Assembly: GCA_964248365.1 (NCBI GenBank)
Contig: CAXTYC010000021.1
Location: 24,412 to 88,411, forward strand
Origin: an uncultured Chroococcidiopsis sp.
Lineage (GTDB): Bacteria > Cyanobacteriota > Cyanobacteriia > Cyanobacteriales > Chroococcidiopsidaceae
DNA length: 64,000 nt
Direction: 5' to 3'
The position numbers and the translations under genes were made by a program. Numbering within the stretch: the first letter of the stretch is position 1; every line of letters starts with the position of its first letter. Shown here piece after piece: positions 35,933-41,538 of the stretch. The notes under the pieces are model-generated. The model was not told the DNA's origin. It did not search any database and saw only the letters and a program-made list of their open reading frames with translations.

Positions 35933-36871
35933 ATGAAAAAACAAATTGTCACTACAGGATTTGTTTTGTTTTCTTTCATGTTGCCACTCAAGGCAACGGC
36001 GGCGACTTTTAGTCAGATTTATGTTTTTGGTGACAGCCTTTCGGATACTGGTAATTCGTTCAACGCTACAGGAATTCCCCCTAGTCCACCCTACTTTCAA
36101 GGACGTTCTTCTAATGGTCCAGTTTGGTCAGAATATCTAGCAGATGATCTGGGATTAACCCCCCAGCAGCAAACTAATTATGCCTTTGGTGGGGCAAATA
36201 GTGGAAGCGATAACACTTTAGTTCCTGGGTTACAGGGTTTGCCTGGATTGCAGCAGCAAATTGATAGTTACAAAGCAACACATACGTCTGCTGATCCGAA
36301 TGCGCTATATGCACTCTGGGCTGGTGCGAATGATTATCTTAGTGGTAGTACCACTAACCCTGCTGTACCAGTTAATAATGTATCAACGGCAGTGAATTCG
36401 CTGGCAGACTTGGGCGCTAAAAATATCATGGTGCTTAACTTGCCAGATTTAGGAAAGCTTCCAGGGACAAGCGGTAATACTCAAGTTTCTAGTGGTCTTA
36501 GTGCTTTGTCACAGGCGCATAACCAGGGCTTAGCAGCTAACTTCAATTTGTTGAGCCAACAATCCAACGTTAACATTATACCTGTTGATGTTAATTCTTT
36601 ATTTGAGCAGGCGATCGCCCAACCGCAGCAATTCGGTTTCACCAATGTCACTAACTCTTGCCTGACTCAAACTGGTGTATGTAGTAATCCAGACGAATAT
36701 TTGTTCTGGGACAGCATTCATCCAACAACAGCTAGTCATGAACTAGTGGGAGATTTAGCCTTTTCATCTCTAGAGTCTAAAGCTGTTCCTGAACCTGCTG
36801 CTACTTTGGGTATATTGACAATAGGAAGTTTAGGTGTCTTAGCGCTGCACAAACGACGAGTAAAGGTTTAG
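35933..36871 (+). CDS. SGNH/GDSL hydrolase with PEP-CTERM sorting signal
   Basis: Signal peptide, FGDSLSD, GRSSNG, GANDY, FWDSIHPT, VPEP + TM + KRR; ATG at 35933. Confidence 0.9.
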   Translation: MKKQIVTTGFVLFSFMLPLKATAATFSQIYVFGDSLSDTGNSFNATGIPPSPPYFQGRSSNGPVWSEYLADDLGLTPQQQTNYAFGGANSGSDNTLVPGLQGLPGLQQQIDSYKATHTSADPNALYALWAGANDYLSGSTTNPAVPVNNVSTAVNSLADLGAKNIMVLNLPDLGKLPGTSGNTQVSSGLSALSQAHNQGLAANFNLLSQQSNVNIIPVDVNSLFEQAIAQPQQFGFTNVTNSCLTQTGVCSNPDEYLFWDSIHPTTASHELVGDLAFSSLESKAVPEPAATLGILTIGSLGVLALHKRRVKV

Positions 36872-36904
36872 TTGCAAGTGGCAATTAATGATATACCATA
36901 AAAA

Positions 36905-37012
36905 CGGCGGGTGCGGGACTTGAACCCGCAATCCCCAAGATGGTGGAGATGTTACCGATAACCCTAAATTCTTCGTCCCCTAAAGGCAAGGATTGAATCA
37001 GGGAACCCGCCA
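36905..37012 (-). ncRNA. tRNA-like / Y-RNA-like unit 0 (downstream of Ro gene; no D-arm, no encoded CCA)
   Basis: Minus strand: acceptor TGGCGGGT/ACCCGCCG, T-arm GCGGG-TTCAAGT-CCCGC, core CTTG-CCTTTAGGGG-ACGAAGAATTTAGGGTTATCG. Confidence 0.75.
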
Positions 37013-37129
37013 TATTTTAAGAAAGCAGGGGGATCTGGGGGAGCTGGGGTAGCTGGGGGAGAGTTATCAGTGACCAGTAACTCCTGACCAGTGACCCAAT
37101 CCCAACGCCTCTAGCCCCTAGCCCCTCTT

Positions 37130-38740
37130 TCAGAGTTCGTCTGTCGCCAGCATCTGGATAATGCGAGGTATGCCAGGATCGAACCCTCCCAAATCCCAAG
37201 AAAGTGGATCTTTTGGATCTACGGGGGTAATTTGGTAAGGTGCAAGGGTAACATACACCGCCTTGATGTTGGGATTCACTTTTTCGCGGTACTTTGCTAG
37301 TGCTTGACACGGATGTTGATAACTATTTCCCCAGCTTTCAGAATCAGTCCAGAAGCAGATGACATCTGCCTTGAACTTGTTGTTAATCATCCAGTCGTAA
37401 GCTACAGATGCATCTGTACCGCCGAAGTTTTGGTTACTAGCTTTCTTCACAGCTGAACTGAAACTATCTTTGCGGGTAATGCCCAAGTCGCGGAAGTCAG
37501 TAGCAAAACCACGAATTATATAGTTTTTCTCGGCTTTGGCTGTAGCAAGTGCCATTGTGGTAACAATCTCACAGCAACTAAGTCCTACTGACTGCACAAC
37601 GCCGCAAGACATTGAACCAGAGACATCAACAGCGTGCATAAACACTTTGCCTGTTGGTTCTACAACGTCGAAAGACATCTCTAGTGCTTTTTCGAGGATG
37701 TCCACGATGCGGGGTACTGGTGTCCAGGTTTTCTGGCTACGTCCTAGCTTACCGCCAGACTGATAAGTCTTGAGTGCCTTGAGGACATCAATAGGGTGAA
37801 TTCGCCCTTTACGCAGATGTTCTCTGTTGTTGAGGACAGATTCAACTCGATCTAAGTTGCCACACATATTTGCAACTTGCAATACACCTAGTTCAGTCAA
37901 GGAACCAAGGTTTCGTAGCATGGCCGTAATGGGCATTTCTAGAAATAGCAACTCCCAAGCCTGCTTGTCCATTTTAGCAACGGGTGCAGCCATTTCATGG
38001 GTTAAGCGTCCTTTGGCGATCGCTTCATGCACTTGATTCGGATTTCGCTTCAGCCACTCATACCACCAAATCTGCGCCAAAGCTTCATTTGGAATTTGGG
38101 CGGGTAATTCCTCCCAGCCTTTAATTACCCACTCAAATAGCTGTTGGTGATCATAGGTAGGTGGTTTGACATGGAACAAGCGCAAAGCATCGCGGTGGGA
38201 AAAGTCTAGACGTTGCTGATATTTCAACAACTGATAAGCCAAACCTTTGACATCTTCCCTTGATAACCAACTTTTACCCGCCTCCCGTACAATTTTGCCA
38301 AATCCGCGTAGAGATTTGGTGTAGTTCAGCCATTCGTAAAAGTGGATACCAGTACGGACAACTTGTGAGAAGATTTCGGTAAAAGCTTTTTTGGCTGCTG
38401 GGGAATCTCCCATCGATAGCAGTACTAAAGCGAATATCGGCGCACTGTTGTTAATGGCGCGTCCATCGCTAGCATAGAGGATTTCTTGGGCTACACGGGC
38501 AGGATCGAGAGCGATCGCTTCTCTTAAAACCGAGACAAAATCATCTGTTAATTCCTGTTTACCAGCGTAGTATGTGCTTTTTGCTGTACCAATCAATAAG
38601 CAGCGCCGCAGCATCTGCCATATACCAGCATCAAACATGAAACCGCCAGAACGTCCCTGGATCATTTCAGCTTCCCGTCCAGGGATGGGCTGAGTTTGGG
38701 GCATACCAGTATTTTTTTTATTGAAGAATTTGTAATTCAT
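37130..38740 (-). CDS. rsr: Ro60-like RNA-binding protein (TROVE + vWA domain)
   Basis: N-terminal PQTQPIPGREAEMIQGRSGGFMF, LRRCLLIGT..TYYA, MPITAMLRNLGSLT, IHPIDVL, vWA MIDAS AVDVSGSM, GGTDAS, WTDSE. The start is ATG 38740 (MNYKFF); the ORF-track extension to 38827 runs into RNA unit 1. Confidence 0.93.
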   Translation of the reverse strand: MNYKFFNKKNTGMPQTQPIPGREAEMIQGRSGGFMFDAGIWQMLRRCLLIGTAKSTYYAGKQELTDDFVSVLREAIALDPARVAQEILYASDGRAINNSAPIFALVLLSMGDSPAAKKAFTEIFSQVVRTGIHFYEWLNYTKSLRGFGKIVREAGKSWLSREDVKGLAYQLLKYQQRLDFSHRDALRLFHVKPPTYDHQQLFEWVIKGWEELPAQIPNEALAQIWWYEWLKRNPNQVHEAIAKGRLTHEMAAPVAKMDKQAWELLFLEMPITAMLRNLGSLTELGVLQVANMCGNLDRVESVLNNREHLRKGRIHPIDVLKALKTYQSGGKLGRSQKTWTPVPRIVDILEKALEMSFDVVEPTGKVFMHAVDVSGSMSCGVVQSVGLSCCEIVTTMALATAKAEKNYIIRGFATDFRDLGITRKDSFSSAVKKASNQNFGGTDASVAYDWMINNKFKADVICFWTDSESWGNSYQHPCQALAKYREKVNPNIKAVYVTLAPYQITPVDPKDPLSWDLGGFDPGIPRIIQMLATDEL

Positions 38741-38744
38741 TTGC

Positions 38745-38770
38745 TTTTCTCGTCCCTTTCGGGCAAAAAT
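38745..38770 (-). promoter_or_regulatory. Ro-binding-like hairpin in the 5' leader of the Ro gene
   Basis: Minus strand ATTTTTG-CCC-GAAA-GGG-ACGAGAAAAG then CAAATG; same architecture as CTTG-CCT-GCAA-AGG-ACGAAG in the array units. Confidence 0.6.
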
Positions 38771-38775
38771 GAAAG

Positions 38776-38931
38776 ATGGCAGGGCAGGAATTGAACCCGC
38801 GACCAGTGGATTAACGATAACCCTCAATTCTTCGTCCTTTGCAGGCTAGGTTGTGAACTAGTAGGGGCGGGTTTAAGAAAAATACTTGTAGCCACACAGA
38901 AAATTCAGCCAAACCCGCCCCTACCTGCCAC
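38776..38931 (-). ncRNA. tRNA-like / Y-RNA-like unit 1 (D-arm region occupied by a REP hairpin; no encoded CCA)
   Basis: Acceptor GTGGCAGG/CCTGCCAT, T-arm GCGGG-TTCAATT-CCTGC, core CTAG-CCT-GCAA-AGG-ACGAAGAATTGAGGGTTATCG. Confidence 0.65.
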
Positions 38932-39094
38932 ATGAATGGTTTTGTATAGGGGTGGGTTTAATAGAGATATCTGTAGCCACACAGAAAATTCAGCCAAACT
39001 CGCCCCTACCTGCCACATGAATGGTTTTGTGTAGGGGTGGGTTTAATAGAGATATCTGTAGCTACACAGAAAATTCAGCCAAACCCGCCCCTAC
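38861..39094. repeat. Tandem repeat, 85-bp period (2.75 copies), of a REP hairpin plus the 5' end of unit 1
   Basis: Units start at 38861, 38946 and 39031; each is (G/A)TAGGGG(C/T)GGGTTT...AAAC(C/T)CGCCCCTAC, the first two followed by CTGCCACATGAATGGTTTTGT. Confidence 0.85.
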
Positions 39095-39112
39095 AGGGTT
39101 TTGGAAATAACT

Positions 39113-39285
39113 TGGTGTAGCGGGGCGGGATTTGAACCCGCGACCTCTCGAACCCTAATCGATAACCCTCATTCTTCGTCCTTTGCAGGCTAGGGAGCGA
39201 GTTTGCGGTGTAGCTGTGCTTCCCGCAAAACTCGCGTGGTGAACAAGGATGTTTTAGCGCTCTACCAAACTGAGCTACCCGCCAC
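39113..39285 (-). ncRNA. tRNA-like / Y-RNA-like unit 2 (class I-type D-arm, encoded ACCA)
   Basis: GTGGCGGG-TA-GCTC-AGTTTGGTA-GAGC D-arm; T-arm GCGGG-TTCAAAT-CCCGC; 3' CCCGCTAC-ACCA; core CTAG-CCT-GCAA-AGG-ACGAAGAATGAGGGTTATCG. Confidence 0.85.
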
Positions 39286-39363
39286 ATAACAATTTTGGAT
39301 GTGTAGATTTTGGATTGAATTTCTCGCTACGATGCGATCGCCTAATAGTAAGTTGAAGGAATT

Positions 39364-39508
39364 TGGTGTGGCGAGGCGGGATTCGAACCCGCGATCAAGT
39401 TTCCTCGATACTGCTTTTCGATAACCCTCAATTCGTCGTCCTTTGCAGGCAAGGTATGAATAAAGGATGTTTTGAAGTTGCGCTTTCAACCACTCAGCCA
39501 CTCGCCAC
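39364..39508 (-). ncRNA. tRNA-like / Y-RNA-like unit 3 (class II, Ser-like D-arm and long variable arm, encoded ACCA)
   Basis: Perfect acceptor GTGGCGAG/CTCGCCAC-ACCA; D-arm GCT-GAGTGGTTGAA-AGC; variable arm ATCGAG-GAAA-CTTGAT; T-arm GCGGG-TTCGAAT-CCCGC; core CTTG-CCT-GCAA-AGG-ACGACGAATTGAGGGTTATCG. Confidence 0.85.
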
Positions 39509-39521
39509 ATGGATTGTTTTT

Positions 39522-39585
39522 GTAGGGGCGGGTTTAATAGGGATCTGTGCGGTTACACAGAAAATTTAGAAAAACCTACCCTTAC
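39522..39585. repeat. REP-like hairpin in the spacer between units 4 and 3
   Basis: GTAGGGGCGGGTTT...AAACCTACCCTTAC. Confidence 0.75.
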
Positions 39586-39599
39586 AGGGTTTTGAATTA

Positions 39600-39731
39600 T
39601 GGTGTGGCAGGGCAGGAGTTGAACCTGCGACTTTTCGGTAAAAACCGACTACTCTTACCGATAACCCTCAATTCTTCAGCCTTTTCAGACAAGTTAGCGA
39701 TCAAGGGATTTGCTACTGAGTTACCCGCCAC
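39600..39731 (-). ncRNA. tRNA-like / Y-RNA-like unit 4 (degenerate D-arm, encoded ACCA)
   Basis: GTGGCGGG/CCTGCCAC-ACCA; T-arm GCAGG-TTCAACT-CCTGC; variable hairpin TCGGT-TTTT-ACCGA; degenerate core CTTGTCTGAAAAGGCTGAAGAATTGAGGGTTATCG. Confidence 0.8.
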
Positions 39732-39744
39732 ATAAATTGCTTTT

Positions 39745-39809
39745 GTCGCGGCGGGTTTAATAGGGATATCTGCGGTTACACAGACAATACCCGAAAAACC
39801 CGCACAGAC
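39745..39809. repeat. Diverged REP-like hairpin in the spacer between units 5 and 4
   Basis: GTCGCGGCGGGTTT...AAACCCGCACAGAC. Confidence 0.7.
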
Positions 39810-39827
39810 AGGGTTTTGAAAATAATT

Positions 39828-39973
39828 TGGTGTAGCAGGGCGGGATTTGAACCCGCGTCTCCCGCGTGATAGGCGATAACCCTCAACTCTTCGTCCCTTA
39901 GGGGTCGTCCCGTTTGGGCAAGGTTTGAATCAAGGATGTTTTTGGTGTTCTGAGCCTCTAAACTACCTGCCAC
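39828..39973 (-). ncRNA. tRNA-like / Y-RNA-like unit 5 (first in the array, encoded ACCA, duplicated Ro-like hairpin)
   Basis: GTGGCAGG/CCTGCTAC-ACCA; D-arm GTTT-AGAGGCTCA-GAAC; T-arm GCGGG-TTCAAAT-CCCGC; 11-bp stem ATCCTTGATTC/GAGTTGAGGGT. Confidence 0.85.
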
Positions 39974-40140
39974 ATAATTTTTTAACCCAAGTTGAATCTA
40001 TAAGGACTTACGCTATTTACTCCGATTAAATAGTTAGCTTTCCTATAAATTTGATATCTATTTGTTGGCTGGTTGGTCATCGGTGTAACTGCGTAAATCA
40101 TGTCTACAAAACTGATAATTTGTCTTCATGACATCTTGTA

Positions 40141-40193: not shown

Positions 40194-40284
40194 TAAGAGC
40201 TAGGCTCAAACGAGGTTCTCTACTAGTGCAAGACTAGAAGAAGTGATTGGTGAATTGCTTTGTATTATTAATGTAGTATATGTA

Positions 40285-41538
40285 TTATTGAATGTCAAGT
40301 AGTTGGGAAGCAAATGCGATCGCTTCCTCTACTGTCGAAATTTTGCCTTCAATTTGTGCCAATTGAATTTGCAGCAAAAGTTCGCCTACAAGGGGACTAG
40401 ATGGCAATTTCAAGGCTTGCATTAAGTATTTACCAGTAATTAGCGGTGTGGGATGAGCGATTGGATCATTGGGGGTTAGATAGCGGTTAATCAGAGGGGA
40501 AATTGCGTATTGTGACACCCCAGCCGCTAGTGCTAGCACTACTACAACACAGAAAACTACTCCGGCTGTACGAAAGAAGAAAAATTGCTCGGCTAAAGTC
40601 ATCCGTTCTGGTGCAACTGTTTGTAGTTGCGGTAAAAGTTTAAGAGTTGTAGTTACACCTTTAATTTCAGCCCGACTGTAGGTTAAATTGATTAACTCAA
40701 GTTCTGCTATTTCTGGATTTGGGTTGACAAGTGTTGCAAGTTTTGCTACAGCTAACCAAGTTGTTTTGACGGTATCGCGCACTGCTTGGCAGAGTTCTGC
40801 ACTTAGTTGAGGATAGGTTTGTGTAAGTGTGGCTGCTGCACAGTCAACGGCTGCTAGTAGAATAAGATGCGATCGCGTTGCACTGGGAAACCATGTTGCA
40901 AGTAACCCATCTTCCCAAGCAGCTTGTATCCAAGGTGTTCCCTTAGCACTACTCAGGAGATACCCTAGTTCTACTCTTACTCTTTCAGCTGCAACGTTTG
41001 CCAAAAGAGGCGCAAGCTTGCGAATAACTGAGTGTGTATCCGGTTCGATGAGAAAATTTAACTGCCCAGCTTGGCGATATGCTCGTAATAGTCGTAAGGG
41101 ATCATCTTGCAGATTTGTAGGTGATATCATCCGCAGTAAACCCTGTTGCAAATCGGCGTAACCTTGCAGCGGATCGATAATTTCTCCGGTGTGAGGGTTG
41201 TAAGCGATCGCATTAATTGTATAATCTCGTCTTTGTAAATCAGTTTCTAGGCTAGATCCTACTGCTAGAGCAAAATCAACGGTTGCGTGTTTGAATACAA
41301 CTCTGGCAATCTGCCGCTGGGCATCAAGCAAGACAAAACCAGCTTTATAATGATGAGCGATCGCATGGGCTGTCTTTACTGCATTACTTAGAAGTACAAA
41401 ATCTAGATCCAAATACTCAGATTTTCTGCCCAGTAATGCATCGCGCACTGCACCACCTACCAGGTAAGCTGGTTGTGGTAGCCATTCGAGGCTAAAACAC
41501 CAAGTTGCAGGAGATAATGCAGTTAGAGAGTTAGACAT
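40285..41538 (-). CDS. tRNA nucleotidyltransferase (CCA/CC-adding enzyme family)
   Basis: AYLVGGAVRDALL, DLDF, DLQRRDYTINAIA, DDPLRLLRAYR; ATG at 41538. Confidence 0.92.
   Translation of the reverse strand: MSNSLTALSPATWCFSLEWLPQPAYLVGGAVRDALLGRKSEYLDLDFVLLSNAVKTAHAIAHHYKAGFVLLDAQRQIARVVFKHATVDFALAVGSSLETDLQRRDYTINAIAYNPHTGEIIDPLQGYADLQQGLLRMISPTNLQDDPLRLLRAYRQAGQLNFLIEPDTHSVIRKLAPLLANVAAERVRVELGYLLSSAKGTPWIQAAWEDGLLATWFPSATRSHLILLAAVDCAAATLTQTYPQLSAELCQAVRDTVKTTWLAVAKLATLVNPNPEIAELELINLTYSRAEIKGVTTTLKLLPQLQTVAPERMTLAEQFFFFRTAGVVFCVVVVLALAAGVSQYAISPLINRYLTPNDPIAHPTPLITGKYLMQALKLPSSPLVGELLLQIQLAQIEGKISTVEEAIAFASQLLDIQ

Follow-up and report, generated by a model that had tools for sequence, protein, structure and literature searches.

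CsrA/RsmA is a repressor that acts at the Shine-Dalgarno sequence, reads GGA in hairpin loops and is sequestered by multi-site small RNAs of the CsrB type. Autogenous operators that work by mimicry, as in ribosomal-protein leaders and E. coli thrS, are described as carrying a reduced copy of the protein's primary RNA site in the 5′ UTR, at the ribosome-binding region (PMC8058203). In the published view, bacterial Ro60 is a ring for RNA quality control that Y RNAs tether to nucleases, and Rsr free of Y RNA is reported to have activities that Y RNA inhibits, which makes the balance between protein and RNA a real question (PMC4201824). The main contact of Ro60 is reported to be with the GGUCCGA strand (PMC4201824). 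In Salmonella, RtcR and sigma-54 are reported to control production of both Rsr and Y RNA from rsr-yrlBA-rtcBA (PMC7790460), and annotation suggests RtcR control at one locus in our set (L054).

We found neither a ro leader element nor Ro60 autoregulation in Rfam or in the literature searched; subscription papers and some supplements, where mentions are possible, lay outside that search. Here we describe a hairpin in the leader of the Ro60 gene (ro) in an uncultured Chroococcidiopsis sp., within the whole 64,000-nt stretch that was analysed (the window). The hairpin is a real, conserved element that crosses phyla, and comparison among leaders makes it a candidate regulator.

The Ro60 gene and its leader hairpin

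37130–38740, minus strand: Ro60/Rsr gene, 536 aa, with TROVE and vWA_Ro60 domains, from domain and structure-homologue matches
38747–38769, minus strand: leader hairpin UUUUUG-CCC-GAAA-GGG-[A]-CGAGAA, from fold, conservation and covariation; candidate operator
38748–38751, minus strand: weak Shine-Dalgarno-like GAGA (−11 to −8) in the 3′ strand of the hairpin, where orthologues have GGAG, GAGG or AGGA

Both domains of the 536-residue protein score above the Pfam cut-off (PF05731, 63 bits; PF25045, 110 bits), and the protein matches X. laevis Ro60 (1yvp, E = 1e-65) and Rsr (2nvo, E = 1.7e-66). Residues K173, R177, D184, R187 and H190 align with K170, R174, D181, R184 and H187 of the X. laevis protein. 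The four residues near H187 (K170, R174, D181 and R184) presumably have roles alongside the histidine that contacts Y RNA. H187 itself is reported to be indispensable for contact with Y RNA (PMC4030889). The ATG at 38740 is the real start, since the aligned orthologues also begin at residue 1 and, in some of them, an in-frame stop lies shortly before it (open frames of 534 aa); a longer TTG frame from 38827 was rejected as not conserved.

The 30 nt 5′ of this ATG on the minus strand are AUUUUUGCCCGAAAGGGACGAGAAAAGCAA, and the leader reads UUUUUG-CCC-GAAA-GGG-A-CGAGAA-AAGCAA-AUG, confirming at 38769–38747 the hairpin that the first-pass annotation had placed just upstream of the gene. It folds with a minimum free energy of −8.7 kcal/mol and A13 bulged, is closed by a short loop, has neither a T nor a D arm, and runs on to the start codon. 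Folded within its native surroundings, it forms its five core pairs with probabilities of 0.97–0.99 each. The GGGACGA strand pairs with UUGCCC with one base bulged, the arrangement of the Ro-binding helix of Y RNAs. At gathering thresholds, Rfam returned only tRNA-Gly over the window, and at E ≤ 5 over 36800–40100 it returned no match for the leader hairpin, RF02553 included.

Taken alone, the hairpin is not significantly stable (z = −1.59; 19/200 shuffles equally stable), and similar short motifs occur 44–269 times per genome, as a chance hairpin would have it. A loose descriptor has 269 matches in the 11.16 Mnt of both strands of its own genome, three of them before a plausible ATG, one of which is ro. 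An intrinsic terminator at the leader was rejected: none is called on either strand, and the U run lies 5′ of the stem, not 3′.

An array of Y-like RNAs next to ro

40258–40298, minus strand: sigma-70-like promoter region before the array, TTGACA-17-TACATT (40298–40270) plus WACA direct repeats
39828–39973, minus strand: unit A, tRNA-shaped gene of a Y-like RNA, which encodes its CCA and holds two nested Ro-type helices
39600–39731, minus strand: unit B, CUUGUCU-GAAA-AGGCUGAAG, encoded CCA
39364–39508, minus strand: unit C, CUUGCCU-GCAA-AGGACGACG, encoded CCA, tRNA score 38.8 bits
39113–39285, minus strand: unit D, CUAGCCU-GCAA-AGGACGAAG, encoded CCA
38856–39103, unstranded: three tandem REP-like 70-nt palindromic elements inserted in the array
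38775–38931, minus strand: unit E, D arm replaced by a REP-like insertion, no encoded CCA; its 3′ end lies 5 nt before the leader hairpin
36905–37012, minus strand: unit F, acceptor stem, Ro-type helix and T arm, no D arm; downstream of ro

Five tRNA-shaped units stand upstream of ro (39973–38775) and one D-arm-less unit downstream (37012–36905), a position where many orthologues also have a D-arm-less unit. In each unit a YUWG-YCY-loop-RGG-N-YG helix replaces the anticodon arm and is followed by a GAGGGUUAUCG-like sequence; GNCGAAG is present in most of them. Units A–D have 7-bp acceptor stems with the encoded CCA, and unit E has an intact counterpart in a relative of the same genus (L002). 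In unit A, at 39922–39885 on the minus strand, the GGGACG motif strand occurs in two nested copies. The leader hairpin is a strand-swapped, stand-alone copy of the putative Ro-binding bulged helix with GNCGAAG in the array. This bears out the earlier reading of it as the array helix without a tRNA scaffold, since the same helix recurs in all six tRNA-like units and the leader has no T or D arm.

In layout the array RNAs resemble non-permuted tRNAs in which a Ro-type helix serves as the anticodon arm, the reverse of the published YrlA connectivity. In the model of Chen et al. (2014), the RNAs of cyanobacteria are YrlA in permuted form, and their acceptor stems are long (PMC4201824). The Rfam YrlA model gives a weak match that spans two adjacent units (35.6 bits against a cut-off of 69). 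A GNCGAAG-type motif was proposed by Chen et al. for Rsr recognition, and is similar to the GGUCCGA strand that X. laevis Ro60 contacts (PMC4201824); from this motif we infer that the cyanobacterial array helix binds Ro.

The promoter match alone is no evidence, since three such sites were found against 4.8 expected by chance. Seen by eye, TTGACA together with direct repeats of the TAMTACA/WATACA type, two or three of them spanning the −10 element, also precedes orthologous arrays (L007, L008, L013, L016, L020, L021, L022, L026, L035 and L036). These direct repeats look like the site of a transcription regulator of the ro locus. The promoter is the likely start of one transcript holding array, leader and ro, a putative single precursor. 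Directly upstream of it, on the same strand, lies a gene of the CCA-adding/poly(A) polymerase family (41553–40285). Two more REP-like elements stand at 39517–39594 and 39740–39817, giving five GTAG...CTAC palindromes in the array overall; an orphan 5′ acceptor strand at 39015 is the remnant of a tandem duplication, and one element took the place of the D arm in unit E.

For one relative (L038), a single raw RNA run gave 91 reads, mostly in the orientation expected for the ro strand if the library was stranded. Its leader is covered at a depth of 2–4 by 12 reads, all in one orientation and with no ends called; a same-strand upstream gene could read through.

The hairpin is conserved at cyanobacterial ro starts

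Ro was found in 18/61 relatives and 41/301 genomes of the phylum. From these, 39 cyanobacterial loci with more than 60% identity and a start codon were kept, our own included, and L018, which has no start, was dropped. A strict descriptor, composed after the leaders had been viewed and applied to related loci that are not independent, matches 34/39 ro leaders, with the final G of the motif 9–15 nt before the start. This spacing does not move in steps of three, and the element is therefore not coding. With identical leaders merged, 34/38 match, against a mean of 0.88 and a maximum of 4 in 100 shuffles; shuffles that keep the last 16 nt of the leader reach a mean of 5.2 and a maximum of 12. The strict hairpin precedes none of 32 other ORFs. 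Among the five misses, L019, L038 and L039 have visible variants, L002 lacks the motif G and L034 is degenerate. L019, whose protein is shorter than 400 aa, is absent from the tree and from the covariation, motif and Shine-Dalgarno analyses, so that the 34 leaders of the last two include L012 instead. Among named records, plasmid pAQ7 of Picosynechococcus sp. PCC 7002 (L048) carries ro with three units and a variant of the hairpin.

In an unselected MAFFT alignment of 38 leaders, 88.7% of cells are paired, against 65–67% with the partners shifted by one position. The pair that closes the loop is C-G in 23 rows, U-A in nine and U.G in three, with nine both-side changes, a number that 0/500 shuffles reach, and its U-A state requires four changes on the protein tree. 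Both-side change is limited to this one pair in cyanobacteria, and the overall covariation score is reached by 19/500 shuffles. The G.U and U.G states suggest pairing in the sense RNA rather than a DNA palindrome. RNAalifold predicts only the upper 3-bp stem.

The letters that stay fixed are UUG, CC/GG and N-Y-G, while the loop varies freely over 3–5 nt. The two letters after RGG are CU in 19 leaders, CC in 12, AC in 3 and AU in none of the 34, so that the invariant G always has a C partner. Two details that the first-pass annotation had offered as features turn out to be local: the loop is often not GNRA in orthologues, this type being lineage-specific, and the nucleotide after RGG is C in 31/34 cyanobacterial leaders and A in only 3, the bulged A of the window among them. 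Between leader and array, the bulge letter shows no tracking outside the window's clade (L015, L020, L030), and the motif letters equal those of a Y-like RNA of the same locus in 13/34 cyanobacterial leaders.

Orthologue conservation, shuffle controls and covariation together rule out chance for the leader hairpin. Of the group formed by a chance hairpin, an intrinsic terminator and a DNA operator we therefore think almost nothing, even though 121/128 matches of the protein-blind scan described below do not lie at ro: shuffled leaders reach at most 4 of the 34/38 matches, no terminator is called around a stem that follows its U tract, and the G.U variants fit sense RNA only.

The hairpin follows the start codon, not the array

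The last T loop usually lies 54–62 nt upstream of ro. It lies 116–393 nt upstream in L004, L015, L032, L036 and L037, and L031 and L040 have no T loop within 1.5 kb upstream; in all seven of these loci, where the array is displaced or absent nearby, the hairpin is kept at −25 to −31. Two genomes with interrupted loci agree: in one (G091) the array stands 5.4 kb upstream behind several inserted ORFs, and in the other (G157) a 321-aa gene separates array and ro, and both keep the hairpin at the ro start. The position of the hairpin thus goes with the ro start codon and not with the array.

This bears on the idea that Ro binds the leader and acts on mRNA fate, the hairpin being the mRNA 5′ end after the last tRNA-like unit is cut, and bound Ro shielding it or recruiting a nuclease (PNPase, as in RYPER). 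The hairpin does begin 5 nt after the 3′ end of unit E, most orthologues have it start some 30 nt past the last T loop, and Rsr is reported to stabilise Y RNAs and to tether PNPase (PMC4201824). Where the array is displaced, however, the hairpin stays 9–15 nt from the start codon and not at the array end, and a Shine-Dalgarno sequence is built into its motif strand, which a stability element would not need. We consider this account unlikely, while giving it some weight.

In most leaders a Shine-Dalgarno sequence starts within or next to the motif strand

The first letter of a GGAG, GAGG or AGGA word falls within the 3′ strand of the hairpin or adjoins it in 26/34 cyanobacterial and 19/31 other leaders. 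For the window, GGGA had been placed in the expected ribosome-binding region; it lies at −16 to −13, 12 nt from the ATG, and the Shine-Dalgarno position of orthologues corresponds instead to GAGA at −11 to −8. Both tetramers are weak candidates, with a duplex of about −3 kcal/mol.

The proposed likeness to the array's Ro site holds for the helix and fails for the full published GNCGAAN0-1G motif, of which the window matches GNCGA only. The full motif occurs in 0/34 cyanobacterial leaders (the window has GACGAGA) and in 9/31 others, and GNCGA itself is present in only 2/34 cyanobacterial leaders. U replaces the conserved C in 19/34 leaders and 7/143 array sites, and G replaces the following A in 24/34 leaders and 1/143 array sites. 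These changes predict a weaker Ro site in the leader, as a titration switch needs.

The upper four pairs of the hairpin are predicted in most leaders (median P 0.96), and the U.G pair below the bulge (P > 0.5) in 2/34 cyanobacterial leaders, 2/31 other leaders and 11/126 array sites. Rsr binding is reported to stabilise the stem in Yrn1 (PMC4201824), which makes a lower helix zipped by Ro over the Shine-Dalgarno sequence plausible. The cost of opening −17 to +5 does not separate non-cyanobacterial leaders with the hairpin from those without it (7.2 against 9.4 kcal/mol).

Control in the opposite direction would have the free hairpin hide the Shine-Dalgarno sequence and Ro open it, a feed-forward induction. 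In the window, the whole helix, GAGA strand included, is predicted to be paired without protein, and a crystal structure is described in which X. laevis Ro60 enters the Y RNA stem and parts its strands (PMC12135203). Against this, the strand that holds the Shine-Dalgarno sequence is the one that Ro is reported to contact (PMC4201824), and in most orthologues the Shine-Dalgarno half is predicted to be open without Ro; we regard positive control as very improbable.

The hairpin recurs in other phyla and in phages

For loci outside the cyanobacteria we used a looser descriptor, composed after those leaders had been viewed; L067, L070, L095, five partial viral loci and L204 were dropped, and identical leaders were merged. 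It matches 23/77 genome loci of other phyla (shuffle mean 1.7, maximum 5), two of six annotated records (Streptomyces phage Belfort and Nonomuraea) and 5/63 viral loci, the last a marginal excess over shuffles (mean 0.8, maximum 4). The matching phyla are Myxococcota, Chloroflexota, Armatimonadota, Actinomycetota and Thermodesulfobacteriota. The hairpin is absent from 54/77 other-phylum loci, 58/63 viral loci and all six distant Cyanobacteriota. Two wider sets, of 301 genomes around G345 and 351 around G346, held few ro loci (one, L240, without a start), and 2/4 actinobacterial leaders in them match, one a repeat of L113. Conservation at orthologous ro leaders, which the first-pass annotation had suggested checking, thus holds in 34/39 cyanobacteria, with covariation and linkage to the start, and reaches other phyla and phages too.

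Matches are most frequent close to the start: the final 20 nt hold 29, and no other bin holds more than 9. Outside cyanobacteria the stem also appears as CUC/GAG, UCU/AGA and UCC/GGA, variants that illustrate the pairing and are no covariation test, since the descriptor forces it. Before other ORFs the descriptor matches 10/263 times at genome loci and 4/189 at viral loci; by eye these were mostly spurious frames or neighbouring Y RNAs, and no regulon was found among them. The 6-nt motif is identical to a Y-like RNA of the same locus in 22/31 non-cyanobacterial leaders. As seen by eye, the Y RNA stem in these lineages is of the usual end-paired kind, and as a rule the leader has a strand pair of its own, separate from the upstream RNA.

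A scan blind to protein, for the hairpin plus GGAG with 18/64 parts of the metagenome covered, placed 6/118 metagenome matches and 1/10 viral matches at a ro start; the other 121 of 128 lie elsewhere. One of its matches stands at the start of an ORF that we take to read like ribosomal protein S15 (L306), probably by chance. In E. coli, rpsO is reported to be co-transcribed with pnp, the gene of Ro's partner nuclease (PMC5029454). L256 and L314 share length and range, which leaves six distinct loci at ro. Seven of 128 at ro starts is far above chance, given that ro is a single gene, present in about 5% of genomes (PMC4201824).

The hairpin label requires 15 changes on a tree of 191 rows, at least 12 of them forced, so that the hairpin was gained or kept many times. 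This weighs on a Ro-independent reading, in which a relic half-unit serves as a 5′-stabilising, processing-boundary or translation-dampening hairpin and resembles a Ro site by ancestry. Tandem arrays are an easy source of such copies, the leader lacks the AAG...GGUUAUCG continuation of the array, and in most leaders thermodynamics predicts only an upper stem of 3–4 bp. Yet the UUG, CC/GG and N-Y-G letters are fixed beyond what pairing asks while the loop is free, and the hairpin is also present in lineages whose Y RNAs have their strands in the other order, and at loci that lack a neighbouring Y RNA (L050, L161, L168, L174). Together with the repeated changes on the tree, this leaves ancestry without Ro a distinctly unlikely explanation.

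The proteobacterial ro loci with a start have the hairpin in 0/17 cases, including 0/13 in a divergent rsr clade (L227–L239). In that clade, a sigma-54-like TGGCAC often stands just upstream, as noted by eye. Transcriptional and translational control of ro may be alternatives between lineages. In five loci without the hairpin (L045, L144, L151, L173, L181), a complete end-paired Y-like RNA was seen by eye to end about 10–25 nt before the Shine-Dalgarno sequence; such an RNA could provide the same feedback for as long as it is joined to the mRNA.

A candidate autogenous operator

A conserved Ro-site-like hairpin at the ro start suggests that spare Ro60 likely binds its own message, and we are fairly confident that Ro binds the leader hairpin at all. 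The leader hairpin is probably an autogenous translational operator of ro that is titrated by the Y-like RNAs. One transcript would carry array, leader and ro. Ro would first occupy the RGG-N-YG-R strand of the array RNAs, whose GNCGAAG motif is fuller than that of the leader. Surplus Ro would then take the weaker leader copy, zipping the marginal U.G/U.R pairs below the bulge, and would cover the Shine-Dalgarno sequence and the 30S footprint, blocking ro translation. Ro would be drawn away from the leader by newly made Y-like RNA, or by some other Ro substrate, and translation would resume, so that Ro is matched to its RNAs.

More broadly, we lean slightly towards the view that Ro60 is controlled in many bacteria and phages by a strand-swapped Y-RNA mimic of minimal size, joined to the Shine-Dalgarno sequence of ro. 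If true, Ro60 would be a sequence-specific translational repressor, mRNA regulation would join its functions, and Y RNAs would gain a new job as titrating antirepressors. The 23-nt hairpin would be the smallest natural Ro60 site, useful for structural work, and would lend indirect support to the tRNA-shaped cyanobacterial array RNAs binding Ro via a loop-closed helix. In other lineages it may also take the place of RtcR control.

Comparison with known systems

The leader hairpin meets Y RNAs in its stem. As in the published stems of vertebrate Y RNA, D. radiodurans Yrn1/Yrn2 and YrlA/YrlB (RF02553; PMC4201824), GG-N-C-G-A stands opposite UUG-CC with a single-nucleotide bulge, here beside ro, and the window's GGGACGA is identical to the Y RNA GGUCCGA at 5/7 positions. 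A Y RNA stem is formed by the RNA's own 5′ and 3′ ends, whereas the leader stem is closed by a 3–5-nt loop and would be part of an mRNA. Unlike YrlA/YrlB, the leader has no effector or tRNA-like module, and a Shine-Dalgarno sequence replaces the AAN0-1G tail. Lacking the full motif and the features of an independent RNA, the leader hairpin is not a member of YrlA/YrlB. Five published cyanobacterial YrlA calls in Table S1 of PMC4201824 exclude it as well, since four of them end 104–138 nt from ro and the fifth 512 nt.

The RtcR system of Salmonella is described as transcriptional and triggered by tRNA fragments (PMC7790460), whereas the proposed ro operator would be translational. As a proposed operator it would work like the mimicry operators: the ro hairpin lies in the 5′ UTR of its own gene and overlaps the initiation region, mimics the helix of 143 array sites whose binding by Ro is predicted, and is conserved and gene-specific, with covariation in one pair within cyanobacteria. 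It differs from thrS and the ribosomal-protein leaders in that the proposed titrating RNAs are small Y-like RNAs of the same locus rather than an rRNA or tRNA substrate, and in that the mimic is only 23 nt long, with its two strands in swapped order. Like the CsrA/RsmA scheme, Ro would repress at the Shine-Dalgarno sequence and be titrated by multi-site small RNAs; unlike CsrA operators, the ro hairpin leaves its loop free and keeps its conserved letters in the stem.
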